Shown here piece by piece: positions 18,762 to 56,285 of a DNA stretch of 64,000 nucleotides (position 1 is its first letter; each line of letters starts with the position of its first letter). Source of the stretch: Syntrophomonadaceae bacterium (GTDB taxonomy: Bacteria > Bacillota > Dethiobacteria > DTU022); NCBI GenBank assembly GCA_003567725.1, contig PWYU01000084.1, forward strand, positions 28,102 through 92,101. The letters run 5' to 3'. The notes below the pieces were generated by a model, which saw only the letters and a list, made by a program, of their open reading frames with translations, was not told where the DNA came from and ran no database searches. The position numbers were made by a program, and so were the translations under genes.

Positions 18762-19346
18762 ATGAAAGATAATCACAACCTTAACCGGTCAAACCTCTTT
18801 GAACTGCTAAAAGAGACCGGGGTTATTATGGACGGGCATTTCCTGCTTACCTCCGGAAGGCATAGCGCCCGTTTTCTGCAGTGTTCTCAACTGATGCAAT
18901 ATCCGGAGCATGCGGAAAAAGTGTGCCGCCTGGTGGCCGCACCCTTTACAGAGAAGCAGATCCATACCGTGATTGGACCTGCCATGGGCGGGGTAATTAT
19001 GGCTTATGAAACAGCCCGGGCCCTGGGGGCAAGGGCGCTCTTTGCCGAGCGTACAGAAGATGGGCTAATGGCCCTGCGGCGTGGTTTCCGGGTTGAAGCA
19101 GGCGAAAGGATCCTGGTGGTGGAAGATGCGGTTACTACGGGCGGTTCGGTCCGCAAGGTCCTTGATTTACTGGAAAAAGCCGGTGCAGAGATTGCGGGGG
19201 TTTCAATTATGATCGACCGGACAGCCGGCAAACTCAAATTTGATGTACCCGTGCACTCCCTTATTTCGATGGAGATTGAATCTTTTACCCCGCAAGAATG
19301 CCCCCTGTGCCGGGACGGTATCCCTCTTTACAGGCCGAAGGGTTAA
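18762..19346 (+). CDS. pyrE: orotate phosphoribosyltransferase
   Basis: PRPP-binding motif VVEDAVTTGGS. ATG at 18762 is preceded by an AAGGAGGA RBS; the upstream part of the track ORF overlaps pyrF and is not coding. Confidence 0.85.
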   Translation: MKDNHNLNRSNLFELLKETGVIMDGHFLLTSGRHSARFLQCSQLMQYPEHAEKVCRLVAAPFTEKQIHTVIGPAMGGVIMAYETARALGARALFAERTEDGLMALRRGFRVEAGERILVVEDAVTTGGSVRKVLDLLEKAGAEIAGVSIMIDRTAGKLKFDVPVHSLISMEIESFTPQECPLCRDGIPLYRPKG

Positions 19347-28566: not shown

Positions 28567-31500
28567 ATGAATTTGGCGAAAATGGCTGTTAAACGGCCTG
28601 TTGCTACCGGCGCTATTCTGGTTTTAATCCTCGTTATCGGGCTGGTCAGCCTCAGTCAAAGCCCCCTCGATCTTTTGCCCGACATTGAGGCTCCCGTCCT
28701 GGCTGTGATTACAGCGTTGCCCGGCAGTTCTCCCCAGGAATCTTTAGAGCTGGTGACCCGCCCGATTGAGGAGAGTGTTTCTACTGTAGGCGGGGTAACC
28801 GGTATAAATTCCATTTCCCGGGAAAATACGTCCCTGGTTATCGTGCTTTTCGACTGGGGCGCTGATGTGAAAAATTTGCGCGAAGATATCAGGATGCGCA
28901 TGGATCTGGTTGATCTGCCCGATGATGCCAGCCGCCCGATGATTCTTGAATTTGATCCCACCCTGATGCCCATCATGCAGATTTCAGCCAGCGGCGCTGA
29001 TGATCCGGCCCGCCTGACCGCCTGGCTTCAAGAAACAGCCGCTCCCAGGCTGGAATCCATCCGCGGTGTGGCCGAAGTACAGATCCAGGGCGGCGTGGAA
29101 GAGGATATTTTCGTCCGGGCTAACCCTAAAGAAATGGCCGAGTATGAAATATCCTTTGGCCAGATTGCCAGCGTATTAAGAACAAGTTTGATGGATCTGC
29201 CGGCCGGGATTGTCGATCTGGAATACCGCCAGGTCCGGCTTCGCTTCCTGGGACGTTATGCAGAACCGGAACTGCTTTCCGATTTGATTGTAGGTTTTAA
29301 AGTTGATCAAGAAGAGTTGGACCGGTTAATCGGTGAGGAAATTGAACTCGATCTAAACCGCCTGATTGAGGCTCAGGATTTTGGTTTTGCGGGCAGTGGT
29401 TCAGGTGGTATGGGCAGCCTGCCGGTTCGGGAGTTATACTGGGATGATATTTTTGACTTTAACTCAGCTGTAGTTGTCGGAGAAAGTATAATATTACCAA
29501 TAACAGATCGGGTTGCCGGTAGGGAAGATCTGGATCTTGAAAGGAGCATGCGCCTCTTTACAGTTAATCCGGAGATAACCCTTCAGGCTGAAAGCAATTA
29601 CCTGAATCTTTCTTTATCTTCACTGGGCCTGATGCCTGTTTCTGTTGATGAGGCCCCAAATGACAGCAGCTTTCCGGTCAAACTGGAGCAATTATGGCTC
29701 ATAGAATATGCCTCCTGGGATCAGGATCAGGTCATTGTTCCCCTTGACCCTGCGGCGTTGCAGGAAAATAATATTTCTTCTGCGGGACTGACCAGGTTAG
29801 CTGAACGTCATCCCCTGATAACGCAGGCAGCACCCGGCTACATTTTAATTAGCTTTCATCAAAACTGGCCTGAAATACGCGAAGAGCCGCTAATATCCAT
29901 TCCAGACCTGCAGGGTTTGCTCTCTGATTTGGAAAGTGGAGCCAGGCAGGGTTTAAATGAAGCTTCCGGCGGCCTGGAAGATTTAATGATTGAACTGACC
30001 ACAACGATGCTGGGCGGGAATACCGGCGGAAGCAGCACCGGAGCCAACCCTTTTTCTGGGGTGGATCTGGGTGATGATATCCCTGTTGATCCGGTTACTC
30101 TGGGCATGGTTGCTGAAATTGAAAAAACGCAGTATGAACCCTCCTCTTTTTCTCGCTATAACATGCAGCCAAGCATCGGCCTTTCCATTCAAAAAGAAGG
30201 GGATGCCAATACCGTAACCGTAGCTCGTCAGGTCAGGGAGGTATTAGATGAGCTCTCTGAAGAGAGTATTGGCACTTTTTCTCAGATCAGCTTTGATACT
30301 ATTTTCGACCAGGCTGAAGAAATCGAGTTTGCCCTGGCCGATTTAGCCCGCTCACTGCTTGGCGGAGCGGTCCTGGCTATTGTTGTGCTGCTTTTGTTCT
30401 TGAAAAACTGGCGTACCACCATGTTTATCGGCCTGAGCATTCCTTCAGCAATTATCGCCACTTTTACCCTGCTTTATTTTACCGATATAACCATCAACCT
30501 GATGACCTTGGGCGGGCTGGCCCTGGCGGCCGGGATGCTGGTTGATAATGCCATTGTTGTGAGCGAAAATATTTACCGGCAGTACCAGCTGGGTGAAAAT
30601 CCCAATGATGCAGCCATTAAAGGGGCCCGGGAAGTAGCCGGTGCGATCACCGCTTCCACCCTGACCACAATCAGTGTTTTCTTTCCCGTAGTATTTCTCT
30701 CCGGCCTGGCCGGACAGCTGTTCTGGGAGTTTGCCCTCACTGTTGGTTGTGCTATCCTGGCTTCATTATTTATGGCCCTTACGGTTATACCTCTGTTGGC
30801 ATCCCGCACCTTGCAGCGCAGGCACGAACAGGGATCAAAGCTTTCCAGCCTGCCCCGGCTCCCTTCCTACCGCCGGGCTCTAAAGTTTACCCTCCATCGG
30901 CCCTGGCTTGTGCTTCTCATTACAGTTATCTTCGTAGCAGGTGGCGCGCTCGGTTTTACCACCCTGGGGACAGAACTTTTCCCCAGCCCGGAGGAATCGT
31001 CTTTTACCGTAAATATTAGCCTGCCGCCGGGGTCTACCCTGGAGACAACCGATGCCTATGTGTCTGAAATTGAATCAATATTAGAAGACCAGCCAGATGT
31101 AGCTAATTATTCAGTGCGGACCGGCGGATCGGGGTTTATGGGTATGAGAGGCGGAGGAGGAGCTTCAAATGAAGCCCGGATCAGGGTTGATCTGGATCCC
31201 GCTGCCCTGGGCGAAATTGATCGTGTCATAGAAGAAGTCAGGTCCCGGGCTGACCGGTTACCCTATGAAGCAGTTAATACTTATTCCAGCCAGTCTGTGC
31301 TTGATACTGCCGGTTTTGAGGCCCGCCTTGAGCTGGTTGTCAGCGGTGATAACCTGGAGGAGGTTACCAGGATAACCGGCCAGGCGGCGGATATATTAGC
31401 CGAACATCCCCGCTTCAGCGATGTTCAGTCCTCGCTGGAAGAAAACCGGCCCGAGGTGCATATTCGTCTGGATCACAGCGAAGCCCTGCAGAAAGGGGTG

Positions 31501-32553
31501 ACTTTATCCCAGGTAGCCAGTGCTGTTCGGGAGTCTTTGGAAGGGATTCCGGTCAGCAGGATTGAAACCGCAGAGGGGATCATGGAAATTGTCCTCGGGT
31601 ATGAAAAACAGGAAATCAATACCCTTGAAGATTTAAGTGAAGTCGGGTTTTATACTGCCGGTGGGGAATTTGTGCGGATCAGCGAAGTGGCCGAACTGGA
31701 AGAAGCTTTTGGGCCCAGAAGCATTCCCCGGGAGAACCGGAGGATCGTCGGCCAGATTGAAGCCAGTTATGGAGATCTTGACCTGGGCACGGCAGCCGAG
31801 GAAGCCTTTGCCGCCCTGGAGCAGATTGCCCTGCCTGACGGCTATACCATTAACACTGCCGGCAGCGTCGTGGTAATGGACGAAGTGCTGGATGAGCTGG
31901 CGCTGATCCTGATTGTTGCCATGGTCCTGGTTTACCTGGTTATGGCCGCCCAGTTTGAATCTCTTTTGCATCCCTTTATTATCATTTTAACTTTACCTAT
32001 GGCTTATGCCGGATCGGTGCTGGCCTTAATGATCACCGGTAACAATATCAGCGTACCGGCGCTGATCGGCTTGATCGTCTTATCGGGTATCCTGGTTAAT
32101 GATGGAATTATCATGGTCGATTATATCAACCAGCAGAGAAGGCTCTATGGGCTGGAGCTAAACCGGGCCATACTGGAAGGGGCGGCCGCCAGACTGCGTC
32201 CAATTATGATGACCACAGCTACCACCGCCCTTGGTCTTTTCCCCCTGGCTTTAGGAATTGGTGAAGGAGCTGAACTGCAGGCCCCGATGGCCATAACCAT
32301 AATTGGAGGACAGTTCACGGGAACCCTTCTTTTACTGCTGGCCGTTCCTGCTATCTATAAAATGGTAACCAGGGAACACCCTGATCAGGGTGCAGCTAAA
32401 GCCGCCCTTGCTTACACCAGCCCTGCCGGGGATGATAGGGGTAAACCCCTGATGAAAATGGTTTTACGAATGGTTATTGTGTTAATCCTGGCCGCCCTTA
32501 TTCTCATACTGTTCAATGTAACCGGCCAGGAAACTTTTATGGTAATTCGGTAA
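28567..32553 (+). CDS. RND (AcrB/HAE-type) efflux permease, unusually long (1328 aa), with a ~300-aa insertion in the first periplasmic loop
   Basis: N-terminal RND signature (MNLAKMAVKRPVATGAILVLILVIGL...DLLPDIEAPVL) and 12-TM pseudo-repeat architecture. No adaptor or OMF gene is adjacent. Confidence 0.8.
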   Translation: MNLAKMAVKRPVATGAILVLILVIGLVSLSQSPLDLLPDIEAPVLAVITALPGSSPQESLELVTRPIEESVSTVGGVTGINSISRENTSLVIVLFDWGADVKNLREDIRMRMDLVDLPDDASRPMILEFDPTLMPIMQISASGADDPARLTAWLQETAAPRLESIRGVAEVQIQGGVEEDIFVRANPKEMAEYEISFGQIASVLRTSLMDLPAGIVDLEYRQVRLRFLGRYAEPELLSDLIVGFKVDQEELDRLIGEEIELDLNRLIEAQDFGFAGSGSGGMGSLPVRELYWDDIFDFNSAVVVGESIILPITDRVAGREDLDLERSMRLFTVNPEITLQAESNYLNLSLSSLGLMPVSVDEAPNDSSFPVKLEQLWLIEYASWDQDQVIVPLDPAALQENNISSAGLTRLAERHPLITQAAPGYILISFHQNWPEIREEPLISIPDLQGLLSDLESGARQGLNEASGGLEDLMIELTTTMLGGNTGGSSTGANPFSGVDLGDDIPVDPVTLGMVAEIEKTQYEPSSFSRYNMQPSIGLSIQKEGDANTVTVARQVREVLDELSEESIGTFSQISFDTIFDQAEEIEFALADLARSLLGGAVLAIVVLLLFLKNWRTTMFIGLSIPSAIIATFTLLYFTDITINLMTLGGLALAAGMLVDNAIVVSENIYRQYQLGENPNDAAIKGAREVAGAITASTLTTISVFFPVVFLSGLAGQLFWEFALTVGCAILASLFMALTVIPLLASRTLQRRHEQGSKLSSLPRLPSYRRALKFTLHRPWLVLLITVIFVAGGALGFTTLGTELFPSPEESSFTVNISLPPGSTLETTDAYVSEIESILEDQPDVANYSVRTGGSGFMGMRGGGGASNEARIRVDLDPAALGEIDRVIEEVRSRADRLPYEAVNTYSSQSVLDTAGFEARLELVVSGDNLEEVTRITGQAADILAEHPRFSDVQSSLEENRPEVHIRLDHSEALQKGVTLSQVASAVRESLEGIPVSRIETAEGIMEIVLGYEKQEINTLEDLSEVGFYTAGGEFVRISEVAELEEAFGPRSIPRENRRIVGQIEASYGDLDLGTAAEEAFAALEQIALPDGYTINTAGSVVVMDEVLDELALILIVAMVLVYLVMAAQFESLLHPFIIILTLPMAYAGSVLALMITGNNISVPALIGLIVLSGILVNDGIIMVDYINQQRRLYGLELNRAILEGAAARLRPIMMTTATTALGLFPLALGIGEGAELQAPMAITIIGGQFTGTLLLLLAVPAIYKMVTREHPDQGAAKAALAYTSPAGDDRGKPLMKMVLRMVIVLILAALILILFNVTGQETFMVIR

Positions 32554-38513: not shown

Positions 38514-39695
38514 TTAATGGGCTTCCACTTTAATATCGTCTGTCCGACTTGAATCCTCTATAGCCCGGTCCAGGTCGGCGTGCCCCAGGCCTAAAGCCCT
38601 GCCGATGATGATAATATTATCTGAGTTTATTTCTCCTGGTTCATAATCCGCTTTTTTCACCGGCAGCGGTATTTCCCCTGCCGCTGTATTTTTCATCAGC
38701 GACCGGTAACCGGAGATCAGGCTGTGTTTGCATGTATTGAGGCAAAAGTTTGCTTTCAGGGCTTTGGTTTTGCCATTTTGATTATTTTGACCGGGCTCAT
38801 AAGTCACCGCTTTGCCCTTTCCTGATTCTTTGGCCCAATAAAGGGCATGGTCGGCATGCTGAATCAGTTCCTTGAGATCCCGGCTCCTGTCCGGATAGGA
38901 CGATGCGCCAATTGACAGGGTCGGCTTAACGCCGTTTTTAATTTTTCCGGGCAGTTTTCGGCCGGTATAGTTTTGAGCCAGGCGTTTGGCCAGCAGCACT
39001 GCTTCATGAGCGCTGGTGTCCGGCAGGATAATTACAAACTCATCTCCCCCGTAGCGGCAGACTATATCATGAATCCGCACCATTTTTTTAAGAAACTGGG
39101 CTGTATCCTTTAGAACCCGGTCTCCAAGCAAATGCCCGTTCTGGTCATTGAATGTTTTAAAATTATCCAGGTCGATAAAGAGCAGGGCCACAGGGCTGCC
39201 GTTTCTCTTGGAACGGGCAATTTCTTCGGTTAAGCGCTGCTGGAAATAGCGGTGGTTGTATATTTCGGTCAGGCAGTCCATGTTTGAAATCCATTCTAAG
39301 TTTTGCCGGTGCGCTTCTTCCTTCCCTTTAAAAAAAGCGATGATCAGTGAACCAAGGCTGGAATAGACCAGCATGGAAATAATTGCCATAACAGCGCCGT
39401 TTCCGGTTGCCGACCAGTGATTATAGAGCAGGGCTGCAGCTGTAAAGTTTGCTGTCAGGGCAATAACCAGTCCGGAATAATTGTACAGAAAGGTTATGAT
39501 AATAGCGATAATAGCCACCGCGGGCAATAAGAATAACCTGGTTGCAGATGGCAAAGCCCATCCCGCCATAACAGTTAGAATCAAAATAAACAGGGCTGCC
39601 CCGGCCAGGTAGAAGCAGGTTTTGTTCATCAACGAATCCAACCCGGTTAAAAAGACGGCTCTTTTAAAGCCCATACTGATCTTTGCCATTATCAA
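38514..39695 (-). CDS. membrane-anchored diguanylate cyclase (canonical GGDEF, intact I-site) with ~110-aa C-terminal extension
   Basis: RIHDIVCRYGGDEF, preceded by multi-TM sensor region. Confidence 0.75.
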   Translation of the reverse strand: MIMAKISMGFKRAVFLTGLDSLMNKTCFYLAGAALFILILTVMAGWALPSATRLFLLPAVAIIAIIITFLYNYSGLVIALTANFTAAALLYNHWSATGNGAVMAIISMLVYSSLGSLIIAFFKGKEEAHRQNLEWISNMDCLTEIYNHRYFQQRLTEEIARSKRNGSPVALLFIDLDNFKTFNDQNGHLLGDRVLKDTAQFLKKMVRIHDIVCRYGGDEFVIILPDTSAHEAVLLAKRLAQNYTGRKLPGKIKNGVKPTLSIGASSYPDRSRDLKELIQHADHALYWAKESGKGKAVTYEPGQNNQNGKTKALKANFCLNTCKHSLISGYRSLMKNTAAGEIPLPVKKADYEPGEINSDNIIIIGRALGLGHADLDRAIEDSSRTDDIKVEAH

Positions 39696-39873: not shown

Positions 39874-40731
39874 TCAGGCTGCCTTTGGTTTTGGTTTGGG
39901 CCTGGTATAGTGGTTAATGATAGGCACAAAGAGGTTCATTCCGATGATGGCAAAGGTGGTTCCTTCCGGCAGCCATCCCCAGAGGCGCATTGCCATAATG
40001 ATCAATCCTACCCCGAAGCCGAAGATGTAGCGGCCGGGCTGGGTCTTCGGTGACGAAGAAGGATCCGTGGCCATGAAAAAAGCGCCGATTAAAAGGCTTC
40101 CCGATAGCAGGTGAAACAGGACATCTTGTCCGGTCAAAATGCAGATCAGGACCACTGCAGAAAGGCAGCTCAGGGGAATACGCCAGTTGGCGTAGCGCTT
40201 ATAAATTAACCAGCCACCACCGAGCAGAAGCAGCAGGGCTGAAGTTTCTCCCAGGCTGCCCGGGATTGTCCCTAAAAACAGGTCCTGCAGAGGGGTTAAG
40301 GTTCCTTCACTGCGTGCTATTTGCAGCGGAGTTGCTGTGGCAACCCCATCAAAAGGGGTAAGCCAGGGGGCCATAGTGCCGGGGAAAGCGTAAATAATGA
40401 AGATCCGGCCGAATAAAGCCGGGTTAAAGATATTTTTGCCGTAACCTCCAAACAGCTGCTTGCCCACGACTATTCCAAAAACTGCTCCGGACGCCACTAC
40501 GTAAAGAGGCAGGGAAGGGGAAACTGTCAGGGCCAGGAGCAGCCCGGTAACTACGGCACTTAAGTCTTTGATTTTTAAAGGTTTTTTTGTAAAATATTGA
40601 TATAGAGCTTCCGAGGATACTGCGGCAGATATACTGATAGTAATAAGCAAAGCGGCGTTCAGGCCGTATGAATAGATGGCAAAAATCGTTATAGGTATCA
40701 GGGCTAGAAGCATTCCTTTCATCATTTTCAT
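39874..40731 (-). CDS. RnfD/NqrB-family membrane protein (orphan, compact 285 aa)
   Basis: Strong matches to the RnfD conserved blocks GKQLFGGYGKNIFNPAL, GAFFMATDPSSSP and NLFVPIINHYTRPKP. No other rnf/nqr genes are nearby. Confidence 0.7.
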   Translation of the reverse strand: MKMMKGMLLALIPITIFAIYSYGLNAALLITISISAAVSSEALYQYFTKKPLKIKDLSAVVTGLLLALTVSPSLPLYVVASGAVFGIVVGKQLFGGYGKNIFNPALFGRIFIIYAFPGTMAPWLTPFDGVATATPLQIARSEGTLTPLQDLFLGTIPGSLGETSALLLLLGGGWLIYKRYANWRIPLSCLSAVVLICILTGQDVLFHLLSGSLLIGAFFMATDPSSSPKTQPGRYIFGFGVGLIIMAMRLWGWLPEGTTFAIIGMNLFVPIINHYTRPKPKPKAA

Positions 40732-40873
40732 AACTATTCCTCCTTATTTATATAAATATTATAGAACAAATAGGATATTCTATCAAACTGGTGCGGCAGG
40801 AATTAAAGTTCTTTTGCAGAACAATTATTTCATAGAGAAACAGCATTGCAAGTTTTTAAAGGAGGAGACCACC

Positions 40874-41413
40874 ATTTCTGGCTACAAAAAACTGGAAGAA
40901 ATCTTTGAAAACCACAATTATAAAGATTACCGCTGGATTAATGCCTCCCAAATAATGGTTGCCAACTGGGTGCGTTTTAAATGTATTTTTGGCTGCGTCA
41001 GCTATGGCAAGAAAGGTTCCTGCCCGCCCCAGGTCCCGTCAGTAGAAGAATGCCGCGCTTTTTTTGGCGAATATGATCAGGCTGTGATCTTTCACATTGC
41101 TAAAATAGTGGAAAAACCCGAAGACCGGGTCGCCTGGAGCAGGGAAGTTAGTAAAGAGCTGCTTAAGGTGGAACGGGAAGTATTCTGGGCCGGTTATCAT
41201 AAGGCTTTTATGCTTTTTATGGATGAATGCCGCCTCTGTAACGGCTGTACCGGCACAAGGGAAGCCTGTGTAAATAAAGAAGATTCGCGTCCCGGGCCCG
41301 AGTCGCTTGCCGTTGATGTTTTTTTAACTGTGCGCAGTGTAGGCTACCCGATTGAAGTCCTTTCTGGTTATGACCAGGAAATGAACCGTTACGCTTTCCT
41401 GCTGGTTGAATAA
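40874..41413 (+). CDS. DUF2284-like cysteine-rich predicted metal-binding protein; start codon uncertain (non-ATG)
   Basis: RVRLKC..GC..YGK...CPP and later C..C.GC clusters match the DUF2284 pattern. AAAGGAGGAG RBS at 40857 but no ATG/GTG/TTG within normal spacing; ATT at 40874 is assumed. The long track ORF overlaps the opposite-strand RnfD-like gene. Confidence 0.45.
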   Translation: MSGYKKLEEIFENHNYKDYRWINASQIMVANWVRFKCIFGCVSYGKKGSCPPQVPSVEECRAFFGEYDQAVIFHIAKIVEKPEDRVAWSREVSKELLKVEREVFWAGYHKAFMLFMDECRLCNGCTGTREACVNKEDSRPGPESLAVDVFLTVRSVGYPIEVLSGYDQEMNRYAFLLVE

Positions 41414-41486: not shown

Positions 41487-42002
41487 TTAAGCACCCTCAG
41501 GTGTAAAGCTTCTGGCGGCCAGTTCACGGTCCAGCATGAGGATACCGTGCCCGGTTTCACCGACTCGCTTCAGCTGGTTTAGAAGTTTGCCCATAGTGGC
41601 CTCTTCTTCCACCTGCTCATCAACAAACCACTGCAGGTAGCTAATGCTGGGGTAGTGATTTTCTTCCTGTGCTATAGCCATCAGCTCGTTAATCAGGCTG
41701 CTTACCAGCTTTTCATGTTCTAAGGCCAGGGTAAAGATCTCTTCGGCCGATTTGAAGTCCCGCTTGGGATCTTTAAAACCGGTAATAACTGCTTCTTCAC
41801 CCTGATCATAGATAAAGTTAAAAAACTTCATAGCATGATAACGCTCTTCTTCGGCCTGCACCTCAAAAAAATTGGCGAAACCGTCCAGGTCTTCCTTTTT
41901 AAAATAGGCGGCCATAGCCAGGTAATAGTGGGCGGAAAAAAATTCATGGGTGATTTGTTCATTCAGTTTGGATAATAATTTTTCTGAAAGCATATCGATC
42001 AT
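41487..42002 (-). CDS. ftn: bacterial non-heme ferritin
   Basis: Ferroxidase-centre ligand pattern (E..H, E..E..H, QWFV.EQ.EEE) typical of Ftn. Confidence 0.8.
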   Translation of the reverse strand: MIDMLSEKLLSKLNEQITHEFFSAHYYLAMAAYFKKEDLDGFANFFEVQAEEERYHAMKFFNFIYDQGEEAVITGFKDPKRDFKSAEEIFTLALEHEKLVSSLINELMAIAQEENHYPSISYLQWFVDEQVEEEATMGKLLNQLKRVGETGHGILMLDRELAARSFTPEGA

Positions 42003-42067
42003 CTCCTTTTACCTTATTATAACATATCCAGCCAGTATTACTACTAATCTAATCGCTTAACCGGAAA

Positions 42068-42235
42068 TTAAGAACCCCAAAACCCGGGCAGTTTTTTAAC
42101 CACGGCAGTGGCAACAATATGCCCCGCCATCATGCTAACAATCACTAAAAAAATATTCTCAGTGTAATAAGCAGTCAAAGCTATGGCCGCGGTCATTATG
42201 CCAATATACACAATAGAGTGCACCCAATCAGGCAT
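42068..42235 (-). CDS. possible small hydrophobic protein (55 aa; MPDWVHSIVYIGIMTAAIALTAYY...), below the ORF-track size cutoff
   Basis: Own translation of the minus strand: two predicted TM helices. No RBS checked; low support. Confidence 0.2.
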   Translation of the reverse strand: MPDWVHSIVYIGIMTAAIALTAYYTENIFLVIVSMMAGHIVATAVVKKLPGFWGS

Positions 42236-42251
42236 CCATCACTCATCCCCC

Positions 42252-42655
42252 TCCCGGGACACGGGGACAGGTCCCTTGTCCCAGCTTATGTAAACCCGCA
42301 CTGCCAATCATCTTCCGAATTAGATGGCAGCAGGTCTTTTTTAACAATTTAAGAATATAGAGCTCTATTCATTTGTTCCGTTAACTCTATTATAACCTTC
42401 ATTAACGGACCGGATGAATTATTATGGCGGTCAGAAGAAAAGATGGAGTAACGGAGTTCAACCCTGGCCCCCAATACATTCTAACCGGAGGAGATGCATT
42501 GATTGTAATGGGGCATGAAGAGCAGATTAATAAACTGCGTTTCCTTACCGCCGGAGATGAATCTGGGACACGGGGACAGGTCCCTTGTCCCAGATTCATC
42601 TATAGCTAAAAGTTTACATAACCTGGGACAAGGGACCTGTCCCCGTGTCCCAGGT
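42252..42655. mobile_element. MITE-like element: ~43-bp terminal inverted repeats (GGGACACGGGGACAGGTCCCTTGTCCCAG-YTTATGTAAAC) at 42252..42295 and 42612..42655, with a third internal hairpin copy at 42556..42600
   Basis: Copy 3 plus its flank is the exact reverse complement (2 mismatches) of copy 1 plus its flank. Each unit is itself a nested hairpin. Confidence 0.35.
42424..42560 (+). pseudogene. remnant of a TrkA-C (RCK_C) domain: C-terminal half only
   Basis: Translation KDGVTEFNPGPQYILTGGDALIVMGHEEQINKL resembles RCK_C beta-strand/turn consensus. No N-terminal partner and no plausible start context. Confidence 0.3.
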
Positions 42656-42677
42656 TTGGGTCAGCCTCCTACCCGAT

Positions 42678-45356
42678 TTATACTTTTTCCAGGTTAATGG
42701 CGCAAACTTTTAATTCCGGGATGTTTGCTACCGGGTCCAGCTCGGAGTTGGTGAGCTGATTGGCACACGTTTCAGCAAAATGGAAAGTCATAAACACAAT
42801 GCCTTCCTTTAAGTCCGAAACAGGTTTGACTTCAGCTTCGACTTCACCCCGCCTGGAGGTCAGGCGCACCTTATCGTTTTCATTCAAACCCATGCGTTCT
42901 GCGTCTTCCTTGCTGATCAGAGCTTTTTCTACATTGTAAAGATCACTTAACCCATCTGAACGCCGGGTCATGGTCCCGGTATGGTAATGATAAAGTGATC
43001 TGCCGGTGGTGAGAATGAATGGGTAGTCCTGATCGGGAGTTTCAGCCGGGGGCTTATAATCTACCGGCTTAAACTGGGCTTTGCCGCTGCCTGTCAGGAA
43101 TTTTTCTTCATATAGGATCGGTGTGCCCGGGTGGTTTTCGTCCGGGCAGGGCCAGCATATACCGCCTTCTTCGAGCCTTTCGTAGGTGATACCTTTCCAT
43201 TTTGGGCTAAGTTCTGCAACTTCCTGCATAACTTCGCCAGGTTTTTTGAATTCGAATCCTTTCAAGCCTAATTTAAGGCCCAATTTGCAGAGAATTTCAA
43301 AGTCGCTCCTGGCTTCACCCGGAGGATTGATCGCCTTACGGCCCCGCTGGATCCGCCGCTCAGTGTTGACAAATGTGCCGTCTTTTTCGGCGAAAGAAGC
43401 TGCCGGCAGCACGACATCGGCGTAATCTGCAGTTTCTGTGAAGAAAAGATCCTGAACAACAACCAGCTCCAATTTTTCAAGGGCATCCTTGATTTTGCAG
43501 ATGTCTGGTTCACTGACAACGGGGTTTTCACCCATGATATAAACGCCTTTAATTTTATCTTCCAGCGCAGCTTTAAACATCTTGGTCATGGGCATACCCG
43601 GCTTATCGGGGATCTTAGCGCCGTAAGCTTCAGAGAATTTCTGGTTTGCTTCCGGCGAACTTACCGGTTGATAACCGGGGAAGACGTTGGGCAGTGCGCC
43701 CATATCGCAGGCCCCCTGCACGTTATTCTGGCCGCGCAGCGGATTGACGCCGCCGCCTCTTTTACCCATGTTTCCGGTTAAGGTAGCCAGCCCGGCCAGG
43801 GCTAAGACATTGTCCGTGCCGCTGGTGTGCTGGGTGATGCCCATGGTATAAAGAATGGCAGCCGGGTCGCTTCCAGCGTAAATTCTGGCCGCCTGGGTGA
43901 TCTTTTCCGCCGGAACCCCGGTAATATCGGCCATTTCGTTCAAATCGATAGCACGGATTTTTTCGGCATATTCCTCGAACCCTTCGGTCCGGTTTTTGAT
44001 GAATTCAGCATCGTAAAGCTCCTCATCGATAATTACCCTGGCCATGCCCTGCAGCAGGGCGGCGTTGGTTCCCGGTTTAAGCTGGAGGAATACATCTGCT
44101 TTCTCCGCAATCTTGATCCGCCTGGGATCGGCTACGATCAATTTGGCGCCGTTTTTAACGGCCCGTCTGATCCGGTAGCCAATAACGGGGTGAGTTTCAG
44201 TGGTATTGGAACCGATAATGAAAAAGGCTTTCGCTTCATCAGCGATGTCATCAATACTGTTGGTCATCGCGCCACTGCCAAATGTTGTAGCCAGACCGGC
44301 TACAGTCGGCGCGTGTCAGAGACGGGCGCAGTGATCGACGTTGTTTGTGCCAAGAGCCCGGAAGATCTTTTGAAATAGATAATTTTCTTCATTGGAGCAC
44401 CGGGCAGAGCTGATGGCACCTAGGGCGTCGGCGCCGTGTTTTGCTTTGATATCATGCATTTTGTCAGCAATGAAATCTAAAGCTTCATCCCAGGTAGCTT
44501 CTACAAATATGCCATCTTTTTTGATTTTCGGTTTTTTAAGGCGTTCCGGGTGGTTAATAAAATCAAATCCAAAGCGTCCCTTCACGCATAGATCACCGCG
44601 GTTTACCGGGTTGTCACGGTTTCCGTCCACTTTGATTACACGGTCACCGCGCACCCCTATCTTGACCCCGCAGCCTACTCCGCAGTAGGTGCACACGCTT
44701 TCCACCTCGCGCTCTACTAAGGCTGGTTTGGCCAGGTAGAGGGCACCGGTCGGACAGCGCACCAGGCATTCGCCGCAGGATTCACACTTTGAATCTTTAA
44801 GCGGCTTGTCTCCTAAAACAGAAACCCTGGTGTGGAAACCGCGGAAGGCAAAATCAATGGCCGCGACCCCGTTAATCTCTTCGCAGGTGCGAATGCAGAT
44901 TCCGCATAAAATACAGCGTGTAAAATCGCGGTGGAAAAAAGGATTACTGTCATCTGGTTTGACCGCTTCTACCGAGCGGCGAATTTTGCGCATCCGGTCC
45001 TGGTTAATCCCCACAAAAGCGCTCACTTCCTGCAACCTGCAGCTATTGTTCCGCGAACAGCCCTGGCAGTCCTTGTTATGGCTGGCCAGGATCAGCTCCA
45101 CGTTGGTCAAACGGACTTTACGCACTTCCTCCGTATCAGTCTTGACTATCATACCGTCTTTTACCGGGGCCCGGCAGGCGGTAACAATCTTGCCGTCAGC
45201 ATCGACCATACAAATCCGGCAGCCGCCGAAAGTGGGAAGATCAGGGTGATGGCAGAGGGGGGGGATATAGATGCCCGCTTGTTCCGCTGCTTCAAATACG
45301 GTTATTCCCTTTTCGACTTCAATATCTAAACCGTTAATTGTTATTTTTAGCATCAT
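42678..45356 (-). CDS. fdhA: formate dehydrogenase alpha subunit, selenocysteine-containing (NuoG-like 2Fe-2S/4Fe-4S N-terminus plus Mo-bisPGD catalytic domain); in-frame UGA at 44316..44318
   Basis: The two track ORFs 44316..45356 and 42678..44267 are contiguous in frame across a TGA: ...[31 protein letters not shown]..., which aligns with the E. coli FdhF Sec140 region CARV-U-HGPSVAGL...GNGAMSN. Confidence 0.8.
44270..44318 (-). promoter_or_regulatory. bacterial SECIS element: UGA, 11-nt spacer, then hairpin UGUAGCC-GGUCU-GGCUACA
   Basis: Minus-strand mRNA immediately 3' of the UGA forms a 7-bp stem with a GGUC-containing apical loop at the canonical 11-nt spacing. Confidence 0.55.
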
Positions 45357-47267
45357 TTAACCTTCCTTTCCACTAGCCGCAGCAGCCAGATTTTCTTTTC
45401 CAGTCAGGCGCACCACCGCGCTGAAGCGCTCGGGGCATTCCTGGAAGCAGATGCCACACTTGGTGCATTTGTTCTGATCAATCGTATGCGGCACTTTCTT
45501 TTCGCCGCTAATCGCCTCGACCGGGCAAGCCTTACGACAGCGCCCGCAGGCGGTACATTTTTCTTCATCAATATGAAACACGATCAGGTTCTTGCAAACC
45601 AGCGCCGGGCAGGCATGATCCTTGATATGGGCTTCATACTCGTCTCTAAAGTACTGGATGGTGCTCAAAACCGGGTTGGGCGCTGTCTGGCCCAGCCCAC
45701 AGATGGAACCCTTAATAATTGAATCGCCCATCTCGAGCAGATACTCAATATCACCTTCCCGGCCCCGGCCTTCGCAGATATCATTTAAGATTTCGAGCAT
45801 TTGCTGGGTACCCTGGCGGCAGGGGACACACTGGCCGCAGGATTCTTCGAAGGTAAAGTCAAGGAAGTAGCGGGCCACGTCGACCATGCAGGTAGATTCA
45901 TCGATGACGACCATACCGCCTGAGCCCATCATTGAGCCGGCTTTGACCAGGGTATCGAAATCGACTGCCAGGTGCAGTTTATCCTCTGGCAGGCAACCGC
46001 CGGAGGGACCGCCGGTCTGAACAGCTTTGAACTTTTTATCGTCCAAAATGCCTCCGCCAATTTCATATATTATTTTCTTTAACTCAATACCCATGGGCAC
46101 TTCGATCAATCCGCTGCGGTTGATCTTGCCGGTCAGGGCAAAAACGGCCGTGCCGGGGCTGCCTTCTGTGCCGATACTCTTAAACCAGTCGGCTCCTTTG
46201 CTCAAAACCTGGGGCACCACGGAAAAGGTTTTCACATTATTCAAAAGAGTGGGCTTGCCCCACAGGCCTTCCTCAGTTGTCCTGGGACGCGGCAGGGGCT
46301 TGGGCCAGCCGCGGTTACCTTCGATGGACATAACCAGGGCCGTCGATTCTCCGCAGACAAAAGCGCCTGCGCCTTGAAATATTTCCAGGTCAAAATTAAA
46401 ACCAGTGCCGAGGATATCATCGCCGAGCAGATTTTTTTCTTTGGCCTGAGCAATGGCTTTACGCAGCCGTTTAATAGCTAAAGGATATTCTGCGCGCACG
46501 TAAAAATAGCCTTTTGAAGAACCGATGGTATAACCGGCAATGGTCATGCCCTCGATTACCGAATGGGGATCTCCTTCTAAGACCGAACGGTCCATGAAAG
46601 CCCCGGGGTCGCCCTCGTCAGCATTACAGATTACGTACTTTTGATCGGCCTGGGGTTTTAAGCAAGATTCCCACTTGCGCCCGGCCGGAAAACCAGCGCC
46701 CCCGCGCCCGCGCAGGCCGGAGTCTTTAAGGACACTGATTATATCCTCCTGCTTCATTTCCAGGGCTTCGGCCAATCCTTTGTAGCCGCCGTGGGCAATG
46801 TATTCATTAATATTTTCGGGGTCGATTATACCGCAATTTTTTAAGATTACACGCTGCTGGTTTTTAAAAACATCTCCGGTATCGATCCGCTCCACATCTG
46901 CGGGTCCGCCTTCGCCGAAATAGCCGAGGGCTAAATCGGGCCGGTGGTCGTCTTTAACGAGATAGCTATCCACTATTTCTTCGGCTGTTTCAGGAGTTAC
47001 TCCATGGTAGGAAATACGCGGTTGGCCCGGCTTGATCACATCTAAAAGGACTTCGGCAAAACACATTCCGATACAACCTACTTCTTTGATCTCGGCCTTG
47101 ATGTTTTCTTTTTCCAATTTATCGGTGATAGTTTGAACTACTGACTGGGCTCCGGTGGCATTGCCGCAGGTGGCGCAGCCAACATAAATCTGTGGGATGT
47201 CGCTTTTTTGCTCTTTCTCCAGGTTTTCCAGGGCTTCTTTTTCGATTACATCAAACTTTTGGATCAC
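45357..47267 (-). CDS. NuoF/HndC-like FMN- and NAD(P)H-binding subunit with N-terminal thioredoxin-like 2Fe-2S domain and C-terminal 2x[4Fe-4S] ferredoxin domain (formate dehydrogenase beta / diaphorase subunit)
   Basis: NuoF motifs (RGRGGAGFPAGRKWE, FMN/NADH fold, C-terminal CxxCxxC 4Fe-4S). N-terminal CATCG...CIGMC 2Fe-2S. Two CxxCxxCxxxCP ferredoxin motifs. Confidence 0.8.
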   Translation of the reverse strand: MIQKFDVIEKEALENLEKEQKSDIPQIYVGCATCGNATGAQSVVQTITDKLEKENIKAEIKEVGCIGMCFAEVLLDVIKPGQPRISYHGVTPETAEEIVDSYLVKDDHRPDLALGYFGEGGPADVERIDTGDVFKNQQRVILKNCGIIDPENINEYIAHGGYKGLAEALEMKQEDIISVLKDSGLRGRGGAGFPAGRKWESCLKPQADQKYVICNADEGDPGAFMDRSVLEGDPHSVIEGMTIAGYTIGSSKGYFYVRAEYPLAIKRLRKAIAQAKEKNLLGDDILGTGFNFDLEIFQGAGAFVCGESTALVMSIEGNRGWPKPLPRPRTTEEGLWGKPTLLNNVKTFSVVPQVLSKGADWFKSIGTEGSPGTAVFALTGKINRSGLIEVPMGIELKKIIYEIGGGILDDKKFKAVQTGGPSGGCLPEDKLHLAVDFDTLVKAGSMMGSGGMVVIDESTCMVDVARYFLDFTFEESCGQCVPCRQGTQQMLEILNDICEGRGREGDIEYLLEMGDSIIKGSICGLGQTAPNPVLSTIQYFRDEYEAHIKDHACPALVCKNLIVFHIDEEKCTACGRCRKACPVEAISGEKKVPHTIDQNKCTKCGICFQECPERFSAVVRLTGKENLAAAASGKEG

Positions 47268-47709
47268 TTTTTTCTAGAACCTCCTTTGCCTGTTTCGGAA
47301 CAAGACGCCCGAAAACATCGTCATCAACCATAACCACGGGGGCCAGCGCACAGGAGCCGACGCAGTTTACCCGTTCCAGGCTGAACTTGTAATCCGGTGT
47401 GTTTTCACCGGCCTTGATCCCCATTTCACGTTCTAAGGCATCCATAACCTGCATGCCGCCCCGGACGTGGCATGCCGTTCCCAGGCACACTTTCACCGAT
47501 CGATCGCCGCGCCGGCTGAAATAGAACTGGGAATAAAAAGTGGCAGTACCATAAACTTTGCTTTCCGGTATGCCGATATGGTCGGCAATATCCCGGATTG
47601 CTTCTTCCGGCAGGTAACCGATTTCGTTCTGAACCGCTTGTAGCATGGGGATTACTTCGTTGGGTTTACCTTCAAAACCTGATAAAACTTTTTTGGTTTG
47701 TTCCTGCAA
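47251..47709 (-). CDS. NuoE/HndA-like thioredoxin-fold 2Fe-2S subunit
   Basis: Cys pattern C..C....C...C (CLGTACHVRGG...CVGSCALAP) typical of NuoE 24-kDa subunits. Overlaps the nuoF-like start by 17 nt. Confidence 0.8.
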   Translation of the reverse strand: MQEQTKKVLSGFEGKPNEVIPMLQAVQNEIGYLPEEAIRDIADHIGIPESKVYGTATFYSQFYFSRRGDRSVKVCLGTACHVRGGMQVMDALEREMGIKAGENTPDYKFSLERVNCVGSCALAPVVMVDDDVFGRLVPKQAKEVLEKSDPKV

Positions 47710-48041
47710 ATTCTTCCCTCCATTCCGTTGTCTTAAGGTTTTCCTGCAAAGTATAGCAGATGTTAAATATCCTTACTTATATCCGCACTTATTTTCTCGA
47801 TGGAGTCTGTAAATTCCTGCCCGCAGCAATAAGAGTAAAAATTCAAACAAACGCCTCCAATGGTGGTTCGCTTGCTTTACGCTCCTGAGAACCTTAAATT
47901 GCGGGGCCGGTCCTAAAGTTAAAAAGTGACAACCAGAATCTGGCCGCTAAAGCACAAATTTGCCCCGCTGCGCCGTCCTCAGCGCCTTTAATGCTGAACT
48001 GGATCAATGGTGGAATTAGCGGAGTCAAGCATTATTTCACC

Positions 48042-49259
48042 TTACATGAAAAACAAAAAAGTTAGGGGAACGAACATTTTGATGGCTAAAAGGCGGCAGA
48101 GATGAACCATGGAGATTTTAAAGGGATCAAGATCGTGCTTAATGGCTAAAGCGGTCATGACGGAAAAACCGCCCGGGGCGGCTGCCAGGAAGCTGGTGGG
48201 AAAATCCCAATCAGTAATGCGGTATATTACCCCGGCTATAGCGAAAGAACTGATAAACATCACTGTAGTTGCGATCAAAATTGGCAGCAGGAATTCAATT
48301 TTTACCATGGTGTGAATTGTTTCAGGGGTAATATTTCCGGCCAGGGTTACGCCGATTGCTACTAAAAGGAAACTTACAAATTGTTTTGACAACTTTATTA
48401 GAGGGATTCCTGTAATTGATGCAGCAGCAATAAAGAAGGTTGAACCGATCATTAAGCCTGCCGGGATCCCGATCAACAAAAAAACAAATCCTCCCGCAGT
48501 TGCAATTGCGATAGTAGTTAACCCTTTTACCCAGGAGTACTTTACCGAAACCAGCAAGTTAGCTAATTGGGGGCGGCTCAAGATGGTGATAATCGATCTG
48601 TAATGTAGGCCCCAAAAGTTTTGATTCCTGCTTTTTGGGCGGGCGCTGCCTGGTTCAGGAGCTTTCTTTTGACCGGCGTTCCCAGGCTTATTAGCGCCCA
48701 TCAGTTTGGCACCGGTGTGAGCGGGTGGTCCGGCTAAGGTATTGTTGTTGTTCTCTCTATTCTTGATCCATCCGACAATGGCCGGAAAAAGCATGATTGA
48801 GCCGAGCATTCTCAGCATTTGCATAAAAATGACCACCTCAGCGCTGGCCCCTGAAGCGACAGCCAGCACAGATATTTCCGGTAAGCCGCCCATGCTGGCG
48901 GAAAGAAGTGCTGTTTGGAAATCCATAACCGAAAAACGGTTTAAGAAAAAGCCGATAAAAAGGATCATGGAAAGCGCCCAGATTACAACCACCAGGGCCG
49001 AAGCAGCCATCGGTTTTAGGTTTCGAACTGAATTTTTATCCAGCATGGAGCCAATAAAAATTCCGATAGTGATCTGGGCAACGGGAAAAAGATAATTGGG
49101 AGCATCAGGCAGATCCACATGCAAGGCCCGTAATGCCCCTATTAAAAAGATGGGGCCGATTATTTCCGGCGCCGGGAAACGGAGCCTGGCGAGTAAAAAC
49201 CACCCCACCAGTCCTAATCCAAGTAGAAAAGCCAGGTTTTGCAGGCTTTCAAATGACAT
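48042..49259 (-). CDS. AbrB-family duplicated-domain membrane protein (putative transporter)
   Basis: Two homologous ~6-TM halves separated by a hydrophilic Gly/Pro/Lys-rich linker, a pattern typical of the AbrB duplication family. Confidence 0.5.
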   Translation of the reverse strand: MSFESLQNLAFLLGLGLVGWFLLARLRFPAPEIIGPIFLIGALRALHVDLPDAPNYLFPVAQITIGIFIGSMLDKNSVRNLKPMAASALVVVIWALSMILFIGFFLNRFSVMDFQTALLSASMGGLPEISVLAVASGASAEVVIFMQMLRMLGSIMLFPAIVGWIKNRENNNNTLAGPPAHTGAKLMGANKPGNAGQKKAPEPGSARPKSRNQNFWGLHYRSIITILSRPQLANLLVSVKYSWVKGLTTIAIATAGGFVFLLIGIPAGLMIGSTFFIAAASITGIPLIKLSKQFVSFLLVAIGVTLAGNITPETIHTMVKIEFLLPILIATTVMFISSFAIAGVIYRITDWDFPTSFLAAAPGGFSVMTALAIKHDLDPFKISMVHLCRLLAIKMFVPLTFLFFM

Positions 49260-53576: not shown

Positions 53577-56285
53577 TCAAAAAACTTCAAAAAAATGTTC
53601 CAGCAGCTCTGGATCGAGCCTGGTCCCAGCCTGGGTTTTTAACCGGGCAGCAATTTCCGGCCCTGTTTTTTCCTCCTGGCTTTTTGCTCCATGAATAAGA
53701 TCCTGGTAAGCTTCTGCAATGGCCAGGATGCGGCACTCCACCGGTATATCTCTGCCTTTCAGGCCGGAAGGGTAGCCCGAACCGTCCCAGTTTTCATGAT
53801 GGCATAAAATCAGCTCTGCTATCTCAGATAATTCAGGTGAGGCCTGGGCCAGGCGGTAACCTCTTTCAGTATGCTGGCGGATTCTTTCTTTTTCCGGTTC
53901 GCTTAATTGATCTGCCGGCTTATTTAATAATGCCTCTTTAATGGTGACCATGCCGAGTTCACGGACCTGGGCTAAAAGCAGCAAATTGGAAATCTTTTTT
54001 TCATCACGTGAGATTTTACGGCCCAATTTTAAGCAAAGTTCCTGCAGCTTATCATTGTCGGCTTTCAGGTGGCAATCCCTTTCATAAAGGGTTGCCAGAA
54101 GAAATCTGATTATATTCTCCTTGGCATTGCTGCTGTGTTTGAGCTTGTTTTTATACATTAAATCATCGGCGGCCTGGTAGGTCTCTTCCAGGGTTTGACT
54201 GCCGTTTTCGTTGACGGCCAGGCCCAGGGAAATACTCAAGAACAGGCCGGTACTATTTTCGTTATATTCTGCTAAGCGGTTTTCAATTCGCTTGAGCAGC
54301 GCCTCTCCATCTTTGCGGTTGGTTTTAGGAAGGATAAGCACAAATTCATCTCCACCTACCCGGGCTAAGATATCGGCGCTGCGCAAAGAGCTCTTTAAAA
54401 AAGCGGCGCTCCTCTGCAGGTAAAGGTCACCTTCATAATGGCCGATGGCGTCATTGACAAGTTTTAAACCGTCTAAATCGGCTGAAATAATGGCAATGGG
54501 ATAATTGCGTGAATTTTCAAGGCGTTTAAGTTCGTTTACAAAATAATGGCGGTTGTATAAGCCGGTTAGTTGATCATAAAAGCTCAGGCGCCTGATTCGT
54601 TCTTCAGACTGGTGCCTGATCAAGGCATTACTGATCAGTTCAGCGACTACATTCAAGAGGGTAATCTGGTTATCCAGCCAGAATTTTTTTTCTTTAACAG
54701 CATCGAAGCCCAAAAACCCGAAGAGACGGCCGTTTTTTCTAATCGGCACGCATAGAAGAGATTTTATATCCTGATCTTGAAACACTCGTTTTTCTTTTGC
54801 TGCCTCAACAGGAAGATTATCAACATCCGGAATATGGACATAATCATCATGCTTGATTTTTTCCGCCCACCAGGGTAAGGCTTCAAGGTGATGATTCTGG
54901 TTGTTATCTTTTTGAGGGGTGATCCCTGCTGCGCACCATTCATGGGTATTACTCATCAGTTTTCTATCTTCTGAAAAGCGGAACAGGTAGCTGCGATCTA
55001 CTGCAAAAAAAGCGCCGGTTGCCTGCAGGGCATAGTTAATGCCTCTATCCAGGTTTTCAGGAGGCAGGCTGATGAAAAATGAGGAAAGGTTTGAAATCAA
55101 AGTTTCAAAGGCAAATCTTTCATGAGCAATTTTTTCTGCTGCTTTGCGCTCTGTGATATCTCGGGAAATACCGAATATGCCGGTAGGTTCGTCTTCCTGG
55201 TTGCGTAAAAAATGCATTTTTATTTCGGTCCAGATCTTACTGCCGTTTTTGCAATAATGCTCTATTTCCAGTTCTTGAACTCTGTTCCAGGCGTTTTTTT
55301 CATTTTGTTCCAAAGAGACTGCTTTCTGAAAAAGCATTATGGCTTTGTCAAGTGATGCCGGGGTAAGGGTGGTGCTGATATTTTCGCCAATTAATTCTTC
55401 AGGGCTGAATCCAAGCAATTTTTTGACCGAGGGGCTGATGTGGGTATAGGTTAAGTTCATATCACAGGTCCAGACTATATCACTGACGTTTTCAGACAGC
55501 AGGCGGTATTTTTCTTCACTTTTTCTTAAATCCTGTTCCTGTTTTTTCTGGTCCGTCACATCTCTCAGCTGTTCAATAATATGCATTATATTGCCGTTTT
55601 GATCTAAAATCGGGTTGCTGTGGCAGTCTAAATAGAGATCCATTTCGGGGACATATATTTCTACCCTTTCTATTTGCTTGGTTTGCAAGGCCTTCCTGGT
55701 GGCGCACTTTTCGCACTCCCGGTCCCTTCCGATTAATTCGTAACATTTCCTGTTTTTAACCTGCTCCGGACCTAAACCCAGTAAGTTGTAACCGGCCTGG
55801 TTGTAACGCTCAACCGTGTAATCGGGGTACTGGAGCGCTAAAACATCGGGGATAGCATTAAAAATACCTTCGAGCAGCCTGTTTTGGCTGGCCAGCGCTT
55901 CTTCTGTTTCCCTTTGAGCGGTAATATCCCTTACCCACTCTATTATATATTTTACCTCATTATTTTGATCAAGAATGGGAATAACCCTTTGATCAAGCAA
56001 GGTACCATCCTGCAAGCGGGCTTCCTGCTGGAAAGGCTCTTTGGTTTTAAAAACTTCTACCGCCCGGCACTCAGGGCAGATTTGATCAAAGCCCCTGTAG
56101 GTCCGGTAGCATTTGGTTCCAGGCAACCTTTTATCTTCTGCGACGTCCCCAAATCCCTTCCAGTTGCTGTAGATGATCTTCATATCAGGATCCTGGATGG
56201 ATATCAGATCCGGGATCAAATCCAGCAGTTTATCTGAAGACTGCAGTAAAGTTTTAATCAAGCTTTTTTCCGGCTTGCTGTTCAT
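53577..56285 (-). CDS. multidomain c-di-GMP signalling protein: Cys-motif PAS x2, PAS, GAF, GGDEF (RVGGDEF, I-site RSAD), then HD-GYP with HD replaced by RE
   Basis: GGDEF and HHENWDGSGYP motifs are present. The position aligned to HDIGK in the paralog reads VRELGM. Confidence 0.8.
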   Translation of the reverse strand: MNSKPEKSLIKTLLQSSDKLLDLIPDLISIQDPDMKIIYSNWKGFGDVAEDKRLPGTKCYRTYRGFDQICPECRAVEVFKTKEPFQQEARLQDGTLLDQRVIPILDQNNEVKYIIEWVRDITAQRETEEALASQNRLLEGIFNAIPDVLALQYPDYTVERYNQAGYNLLGLGPEQVKNRKCYELIGRDRECEKCATRKALQTKQIERVEIYVPEMDLYLDCHSNPILDQNGNIMHIIEQLRDVTDQKKQEQDLRKSEEKYRLLSENVSDIVWTCDMNLTYTHISPSVKKLLGFSPEELIGENISTTLTPASLDKAIMLFQKAVSLEQNEKNAWNRVQELEIEHYCKNGSKIWTEIKMHFLRNQEDEPTGIFGISRDITERKAAEKIAHERFAFETLISNLSSFFISLPPENLDRGINYALQATGAFFAVDRSYLFRFSEDRKLMSNTHEWCAAGITPQKDNNQNHHLEALPWWAEKIKHDDYVHIPDVDNLPVEAAKEKRVFQDQDIKSLLCVPIRKNGRLFGFLGFDAVKEKKFWLDNQITLLNVVAELISNALIRHQSEERIRRLSFYDQLTGLYNRHYFVNELKRLENSRNYPIAIISADLDGLKLVNDAIGHYEGDLYLQRSAAFLKSSLRSADILARVGGDEFVLILPKTNRKDGEALLKRIENRLAEYNENSTGLFLSISLGLAVNENGSQTLEETYQAADDLMYKNKLKHSSNAKENIIRFLLATLYERDCHLKADNDKLQELCLKLGRKISRDEKKISNLLLLAQVRELGMVTIKEALLNKPADQLSEPEKERIRQHTERGYRLAQASPELSEIAELILCHHENWDGSGYPSGLKGRDIPVECRILAIAEAYQDLIHGAKSQEEKTGPEIAARLKTQAGTRLDPELLEHFFEVF

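Follow-up and report, generated by a model that had tools for sequence, protein, structure and literature searches.

Does the minus-strand region 42678..45356 of the 64,000-nucleotide stretch analysed here (hereafter, the window), which comes from a genome assembly of an uncultured Syntrophomonadaceae bacterium from a soda lake, hold two genes, one dead gene, or a single gene whose internal stop codon is read as an amino acid? The region encodes the catalytic subunit of a formate dehydrogenase, and an in-frame TGA lies in the codon where enzymes of this family carry either selenocysteine (Sec) or cysteine. From the comparisons described below, we consider it very probable that this is one fdhA gene in which UGA encodes Sec, directed by a hairpin located immediately downstream in the mRNA.

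A single reading frame with one internal UGA

When translated in one piece, the region is a single frame of 892 codons, in which the TGA is the sole internal stop:

42678..45356, minus strand: fdhA, formate dehydrogenase alpha subunit, with NuoG-like 2Fe-2S and 4Fe-4S N-terminal domains followed by Molybdop_Fe4S4, molybdopterin and molybdopterin guanine dinucleotide-binding domains
44316..44318, minus strand: in-frame UGA, predicted Sec codon, residue 347, a predicted ligand of the molybdenum or tungsten (Mo/W) centre, placed by alignment with U140 of Escherichia coli FdhF and with the Cys of FdsA

The list of open reading frames (ORFs) compiled for the window splits the gene, within this one frame, into 44316..45356 (346 amino acids) and 42678..44267 (529 amino acids), both on the minus strand. 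An earlier reading of the DNA, made from the sequence without database searches (the sequence-only reading), had proposed that these two ORFs, split at 44316..44318, are one gene joined by an in-frame UGA, and that automated gene callers would cut it in the same way. The coordinates and the sequence proved to be exactly as claimed, there is a single frame with one TGA and with homology running across the junction, and calls of 346 and 529 amino acids are on record for four public assemblies. The 529-residue fragment is identical to a database protein encoded on contigs of GCA_007135065.1, GCA_003563265.1 and two ENA assemblies. The window is 99.88% identical to contigs of four assemblies of the same species, and the TGA is the same in all four. 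A sequencing error is excluded by these four independent assemblies together with the 15 related genomes discussed below.

In a six-frame scan of the window, fdhA was the only long pair of ORFs joined by a TGA that had no other explanation. Two further TGA junctions were rejected as recoding sites, namely 17981..17983 on the plus strand, where the pyrF model begins past the TGA, and 16199..16201 on the minus strand, which is antisense to pyrC and pyrK. A global reassignment of UGA was also rejected: TGA is the normal stop for 11 of the 40 other family-supported genes in the window, and therefore the code is not reassigned.

The joined product is a complete formate dehydrogenase

The joined protein scored 866.1 bits with the NCBIfam equivalog model TIGR01591 (cut-off 666.25), over residues 221-888. 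The Pfam Molybdopterin domain matched as one unbroken stretch, residues 272-692, spanning residue 347, and the TGA therefore cuts a single domain. For alignment with homologues of solved structure, Cys was placed at the stop; residues 4-888 then aligned end to end with two NAD-dependent formate dehydrogenase alpha subunits, 9wxb_B and 6tg9_A (E ~1e-222), and the TGA aligned with the Cys of the CARVCHSPT motif in Rhodobacter capsulatus FdsA (6tg9_A) and in 9wxb_B.

The assertion that the UGA is colinear with the Sec140 region of FdhF was borne out by direct alignment of the window protein with E. coli fdhF (taken from NC_000913.3). The alignment is exact: residue 347 corresponds to Sec140, His348 to His141, Arg541 to Arg333 and Lys259 to Lys44, and C222, C225, C229 and C257 match the four 4Fe-4S cysteines of the E. 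coli enzyme. We take the catalytic roles of these Sec, His, Arg and Lys residues to be those known from the FdhF structure.

The UGA is conserved and both halves of the gene are under selection

A scan of species-representative genomes yielded 80 loci. The nearest ones, at 71-88% protein identity, carry without exception the label Syntrophomonadaceae bacterium and come from genome bins of soda-lake sediments; the next ones belong to metagenome-assembled genomes of Clostridia and Dethiobacter (59-67% identity), and those farther away are mostly from Chloroflexota. The TGA is kept in 15 distinct genomes (loci L005-L015 and L017-L020) with 59-88% protein identity, and L016 (66% identity) is the only one among L001-L020 with TGT (Cys) at this site. 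The 62 distinct orthologue sequences divide equally, with TGA in 31 and TGC or TGT in the other 31, and the UGA and Cys forms are interleaved. In the protein database, from which 123 sequences were retrieved, all 116 full-length homologues that match the motif have Cys at the site; this set is biased against UGA forms because gene callers split them. Thus, Cys in close relatives, which the sequence-only reading had regarded as one of the signs of a pseudogene, does occur in L016 and in the database homologues, but the 15 nearest genomes keep the TGA.

Selection on the gene was assessed by pairwise Nei-Gojobori comparison of the window with L005-L014. Synonymous differences amounted to 0.57-0.76 per site, which is near saturation, and the ratio of non-synonymous to synonymous change (dN/dS) was 0.04-0.11 upstream of the TGA (346 codons) and 0.04-0.07 downstream (529 codons), so that both halves of the gene are under strong purifying selection. 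The 16 codons from the TGA to the next ATG contained only 0-3 non-synonymous changes per pair, and the proportion of synonymous differences (pS) in them was reduced to 0.21-0.55, as expected if RNA structure constrains these codons too. No frameshifts or further stops were found downstream of the TGA in the compared relatives. Because the TGA has remained unchanged through near-saturated divergence, with purifying selection acting downstream of it, it is most unlikely to be a gene-killing nonsense mutation.

A hairpin follows the UGA at a fixed distance

The candidate Sec insertion sequence (SECIS) lies within the coding region, directly 3' of the UGA, at +15 to +33 counting from the U of the UGA. 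Its parts are as follows:

44305..44315, minus strand: 11-nt spacer CACGCGCCGAC, codons His-Ala-Pro-Th, read from the sequence and equal in length to the spacing in E. coli fdhF
44286..44304, minus strand: upper stem-loop of the putative SECIS, UGUAGCC (44304..44298), GGUCU (44297..44293) and GGCUACA (44292..44286), from folding
44287..44303, minus strand: conserved core of the putative SECIS, inner 6 bp with the loop 44293..44297, from orthologue comparison
44277..44310, minus strand: extended SECIS with a possible lower stem, GCCGA (44306..44310) with UUGGC (44277..44281), seen in minimum free energy (MFE) and centroid folds and weakly supported
44263..44321, minus strand: sub-threshold match to Rfam RF01989 (SECIS_3), 46.8 bits (gathering score 63; E = 6.8e-10 when 301 nt were searched)

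The arrangement that the sequence-only reading had described, with the UGA followed after 11 nt by a 7-bp hairpin UGUAGCC-GGUCU-GGCUACA, is present where it was placed, and the hairpin forms when the mRNA downstream of the UGA is folded. It appears in both the MFE and the centroid fold of a 71-nt piece, and partition-function folds in six contexts of 63-400 nt gave the four apical pairs a probability of at least 0.97; the other three pairs of the stem had probabilities of 0.8-0.96 in most of these contexts.

The 31 UGA-type sequences aligned without gaps, allowing each position of the hairpin to be followed across them. In the loop, G22, G23 and U24 never vary, and C25 varies hardly at all. 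The combination of a 6-bp stem and a GGUCU loop, always in the same register, was found in 28 of the 31 UGA orthologues versus 3 of the 31 Cys orthologues (Fisher p = 9e-11, uncorrected for shared ancestry). Two pairs made of synonymous third positions are particularly informative about the stem: pair 18-30 is G-C in 17 sequences, A-U in 13 and C-G in one, and is never unpaired, and pair 21-27 is C-G in 30 and U-A in one. Both the covariation score and the paired fraction exceeded those of 500/500 column shuffles and of every slid register. In the same stretch, the Cys forms mostly choose other Gly, Leu, Val and Ala codons. Covariation, retention together with UGA and decay together with Cys support the conclusion, drawn from these alignments, that the hairpin is maintained by selection, and it is this comparative evidence, not the fold of the single sequence, that is decisive for the hairpin.

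The full extent of the stem is less certain than its core. All seven pairs form in the window, but the seventh (15-33) forms in only 11 of the 31 UGA orthologues, so that the 7-bp stem described earlier stands for this sequence and not for the group. In the possible lower stem, three of the five pairs are invariant as bases of Pro and Gly codons, and in 19 of the 31 sequences the remaining two do not form. Given the 11/31 occurrence of the one and the invariant Pro and Gly codon bases of the other, neither the seventh pair nor the lower stem is well supported.

Three Cys-type orthologues, L029:11024, L059:1389 and L070:2354 (the positions of the Cys codons), have kept a perfect 6-bp stem with a GGUCU loop within the next 60 nt. 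These appear to be fossil SECIS elements left by recent Sec-to-Cys conversions.

Weighing the explanations

If the TGA had arisen by nonsense mutation and put an ancestral Cys-type fdhA out of action, then the TGT of L016, the Cys present in every motif-matching full-length homologue in the protein database and the lack of sel genes seen in the window would all fit. The database, however, is biased through the splitting of UGA forms, and the other features of the locus argue against a pseudogene: a TGA kept across 15 genomes with near-saturated synonymous sites, a downstream dN/dS as low as that upstream with neither frameshifts nor extra stops, and compensatory synonymous changes that maintain the hairpin only together with UGA. 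We regard gene death as a very improbable explanation. No better placed is a genuinely split enzyme, in which a 346-residue Fe-S protein ends at the UGA and a separate 529-residue molybdopterin protein starts from the AUG at 44267. Such an enzyme would account for the public gene calls, which are exactly these two products, and for the ATG found 16 codons past the TGA, but it would leave the 16 intervening codons, including that of the catalytic His348, untranslated, whereas their pattern of change is that of coding sequence; the enzyme would lack the metal-ligand position, one Pfam domain would be cut in two, and no solved or database homologue is split at this position. The chances of a true split thus appear minimal.

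A third possibility is that the UGA is read through as another amino acid in place of Sec, such as Cys or Trp from a near-cognate or mis-charged tRNA, and that the hairpin does no more than slow termination. Here, the argument turns on the decoding step, where Sec insertion itself is inferred and sel genes were not located in the stretches searched. Nevertheless, the loop sequence and the spacing are of the type bound by SelB, GGUC occupies the same codons as in E. coli fdhF, the UGA lies at the one position where formate dehydrogenases carry Sec, and in relatives with Cys the codon is TGY and the hairpin is mostly gone. We give such read-through only slightly more credence than either of the preceding explanations, that is, very little.

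Several observations weigh against Sec decoding directed by this hairpin and should be set beside the evidence in its favour. Taken alone, the sequence of the window is not compelling: the z-score of the 71-nt fold is -1.0, which is not significant, and the peptide VAGLAT fixes four of the six core pairs through first and second codon positions, so that the single-sequence hairpin is only modestly improbable. With all synonymous codings of T-V-A-G-L-A-T weighted by the codon usage of the window, the chance of a 6-bp stem given the peptide is 0.17; the chance is 0.028 for the 6-bp stem with a GGUCU loop and 0.0055 for the 7-bp stem with that loop. Furthermore, the counts of UGA and Cys forms are not phylogenetically independent, and the bulged U of the E. 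coli U17 type is absent from the stem in the window and in all 31 UGA orthologues. An Rfam scan of the window yielded nothing at the gathering level, SECIS_3 emerging only in a permissive local scan, and the Cys-type control L016:1692-1748, which has TGT and lacks the hairpin, also matched SECIS_3 (30.4 bits, E = 4e-5). Finally, the SelA, SelB and SelD families had no match among the ORFs of the window, and searches of the window and the 84 loci L001-L084 with tblastn (E. coli SelA, SelB and SelD) and ARAGORN (tRNA-Sec) returned nothing relevant.

The Rfam result calls for some qualification in both directions. Model positions 1-59 of RF01989 all align with the window, covering the UGA and the downstream ...GCGAUGAC, but the pairs of the lower stem and two pairs below the bulge are non-canonical there. 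Seven UGA-bearing relatives were also scanned, and all fall short of the SECIS_3 gathering score. Because the Cys-type L016 matches without a hairpin, SECIS_3 appears largely to score conservation of fdhA coding sequence, and the match counts neither as independent proof nor as family membership.

With regard to the Sec machinery, the only SelB-like match in the search of the loci belonged to an unrelated locus of Anaerolineales, the 64-kb window contains no tRNA gene at all, and no sel gene was found in the ~5 kb beyond the start of the window (L087, contig SLJP01000025.1). FdhA is the most widespread bacterial selenoprotein, present in 89% of Sec-using bacteria, and Syntrophomonas wolfei, with 10 selenoproteins, is among the selenoprotein-rich Clostridia (PMC1794560). 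On these grounds, the Sec trait is to be expected in Syntrophomonadaceae, and we infer from established knowledge of bacterial Sec insertion that SelB binds the element, that Sec is incorporated and that selABCD are encoded elsewhere in the genome.

In the proposed reading, fdhA would be co-transcribed with the NuoE-like and NuoF/HydB-like genes described below. At UGA347, SelB carrying Sec-tRNA(Sec) would bind the apical GGUCU loop of the hairpin that starts 11 nt downstream and would deliver Sec to the A site in place of termination. Sec347 would then serve as the protein ligand of the Mo/W centre, beside His348 and Arg541. This is a textbook mechanism, and the locus is a standard Sec recoding site in the commonest bacterial selenoprotein family, located in an uncultured lineage.

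The operon and the type of enzyme

Three minus-strand genes are tightly packed here, with fdhA in last place; the two upstream of it are:

45357..47267, minus strand: NuoF/HydB-like flavoprotein subunit, 636 amino acids (TIGR01959 nuoF_fam, E = 8e-140), with a stop codon that abuts the start of fdhA
47251..47709, minus strand: NuoE-like 2Fe-2S subunit, 152 amino acids (NF005722, 151.6 bits, cut-off 141), overlapping the start of the nuoF-like gene by 17 nt

The nuoF-like gene adjoins fdhA in 75 of the 76 related loci, and the nuoE-like gene lies upstream in 65 of them. A scan of 42000..48100 for promoters and terminators found sites no more numerous than in shuffled sequences. The set of a NuoE-like subunit, a NuoF-like subunit and an FdhA with a NuoG-like N-terminus matches, in its three-gene architecture, R. 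capsulatus FdsGBA (6tg9) and electron-bifurcating enzymes of the HydABC type (8a6t). Unlike in FdsGBA, however, the NuoF-like subunit of the window is much closer to HydB than to FdsB: its closest relative of solved structure is 8a6t_B, the HydB of an electron-bifurcating hydrogenase (E = 3e-220), compared with E = 4e-103 for FdsB (6tg9_B). Judging from this gene content, the product is most likely a formate dehydrogenase of the cytoplasm that couples formate/CO2 to NAD(H), and given the closeness of the NuoF-like subunit to HydB, it might possibly use ferredoxin as well.

Directly upstream of the three genes, on the same strand, lies a gene for an AbrB-duplication membrane protein (48042..49259, minus strand). 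Its position is kept in L006, L007, L009-L011 and L013, with 48-62% identity versus 81-92% for the NuoE-like and NuoF-like proteins; the gene may encode a transporter with a link to the operon. On the other side, the 675-nt gap between the ferritin gene and fdhA (42003..42677) holds a 61-codon ORF (42424..42609, plus strand), which by eye resembles a fragment of a TrkA-C domain and is possibly a gene remnant; public assemblies call a 61-amino-acid gene at this gap, with no Pfam match on record. Two genes downstream of fdhA, a DUF2284 protein is encoded at 40676..41413 on the plus strand. The gene has no in-frame TGA and encodes a Cys form; in NCBIfam, the protein matches only two selenoprotein families, MbdU and ArsM_DUF2284_UU, and does so in the C-terminal domain alone and far below the cut-off. 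In two of the Dethiobacter and Firmicutes relatives, T-box leaders scoring above the Rfam gathering level (L020:16956-17231 and L051:17185-17409) follow the fdh operon at a distance of a few kb downstream.

Other features of the window

An RnfD/NqrB-like membrane subunit (TIGR01946, 259 bits) is encoded by itself at 39874..40731, also on the minus strand; the rest of an rnf or nqr set is missing from its surroundings, and its position is syntenic in several of the soda-lake relatives. The plus strand carries a complete cluster for pyrimidine biosynthesis, pyrR-pyrB-pyrC-pyrK-pyrD-pyrF-pyrE (13129..19346), in which gene ends overlap, and an AcrB/RND-type transporter (28567..32553) of 1328 amino acids, ~300 residues above the usual length, where the Pfam ACR_tran match falls into two stretches. 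Two adjacent signalling proteins on the minus strand (53577..56285 and 56666..58879) contain PAS, GGDEF and HD-GYP-type (HD_5) domains, the first one with GAF in addition; with further GGDEF proteins at 2628..3782 and 38514..39695, the set of cyclic di-GMP genes is unusually dense for 64 kb.

Significance for the annotation of soda-lake genomes

The split gene calls hide a complete, probably selenium-dependent formate dehydrogenase. Once the recoding is recognised, a key enzyme of formate and CO2 metabolism returns to metabolic reconstructions, and a requirement for selenium is implied. Syntrophomonadaceae are abundant in the sediments of the Kulunda Steppe soda lakes and have been discussed as syntrophic oxidisers of fatty acids and acetate (PMC6295475). 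One can ask whether the pattern extends through the clade, such that soda-lake Syntrophomonadaceae and their Dethiobacter relatives would use a bulge-less fdhA SECIS with a 5-nt loop that falls below the Rfam threshold, with the formate dehydrogenases split in gene calls. We advance this generalisation tentatively, seeing in it a fair possibility that is still somewhat on the doubtful side. Should it be general, it would mean that formate-based syntrophy in haloalkaline sediments depends on selenium in a way that had escaped notice; even then, the gap would be one of annotation and ecology, with no new mechanism involved.

Comparison with known enzymes and SECIS elements

The window protein shares 41% identity with E. 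coli FdhF over 674 aligned residues. Unlike FdhF, it has a NuoG-like N-terminal extension of ~215 residues and NuoE and NuoF partners, and is not part of a formate-hydrogen lyase. It differs from FdsA at the site itself, which is Cys in FdsA and UGA in the window gene.

In E. coli fdhF, the SECIS reads UGA-CACGGCCCAUC-GGUUGCAGGUCUGCACC, that is, 11 nt followed by an upper stem-loop of 17 nt. The window has the same 11-nt spacing and GGUC in the same Gly-Leu codons (GGU CUG), but its stem is continuous, with 6-7 bp and a 5-nt GGUCU loop, whereas in the E. coli element the loop has 4 nt and one U of the 5' arm is left unpaired. The description of the hairpin in the sequence-only reading as a canonical SECIS with the geometry of the minimal E. 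coli fdhF element therefore stands with respect to the spacing and GGUC, and was slightly generous with respect to the bulge and the loop. Hairpins of the Moorella-type SECIS also lack the U bulge, which is therefore a feature of E. coli and not a defining one; the bulge-less form with a 5-nt loop resembles the Moorella thermoacetica fdhA SECIS of the SelB co-crystal structures.

PMC8659212, citing Liu et al. 1998, gives an 11-nt spacing and a 17-nt minimal element for E. coli fdhF. Bacterial SECIS elements more broadly are stem-loops in the coding region just 3' of the UGA (PMC1088965), with a stem of 6-8 bp and a loop G ~20 nt past the UGA (PMC4605307). With a 6-7 bp stem and with G residues of the loop 19 and 20 nt past the UGA, the window fits the latter description. 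Sec-to-Cys conversions in FdhA are known to leave remnant SECIS structures (Zhang et al. 2006, PMC1794560). The locus adds nothing new on Sec decoding and would not surprise a specialist; the exchange between Sec and Cys in FdhA follows the same pattern as that described by Zhang et al., in a group, the soda-lake Syntrophomonadaceae, that was not covered there.

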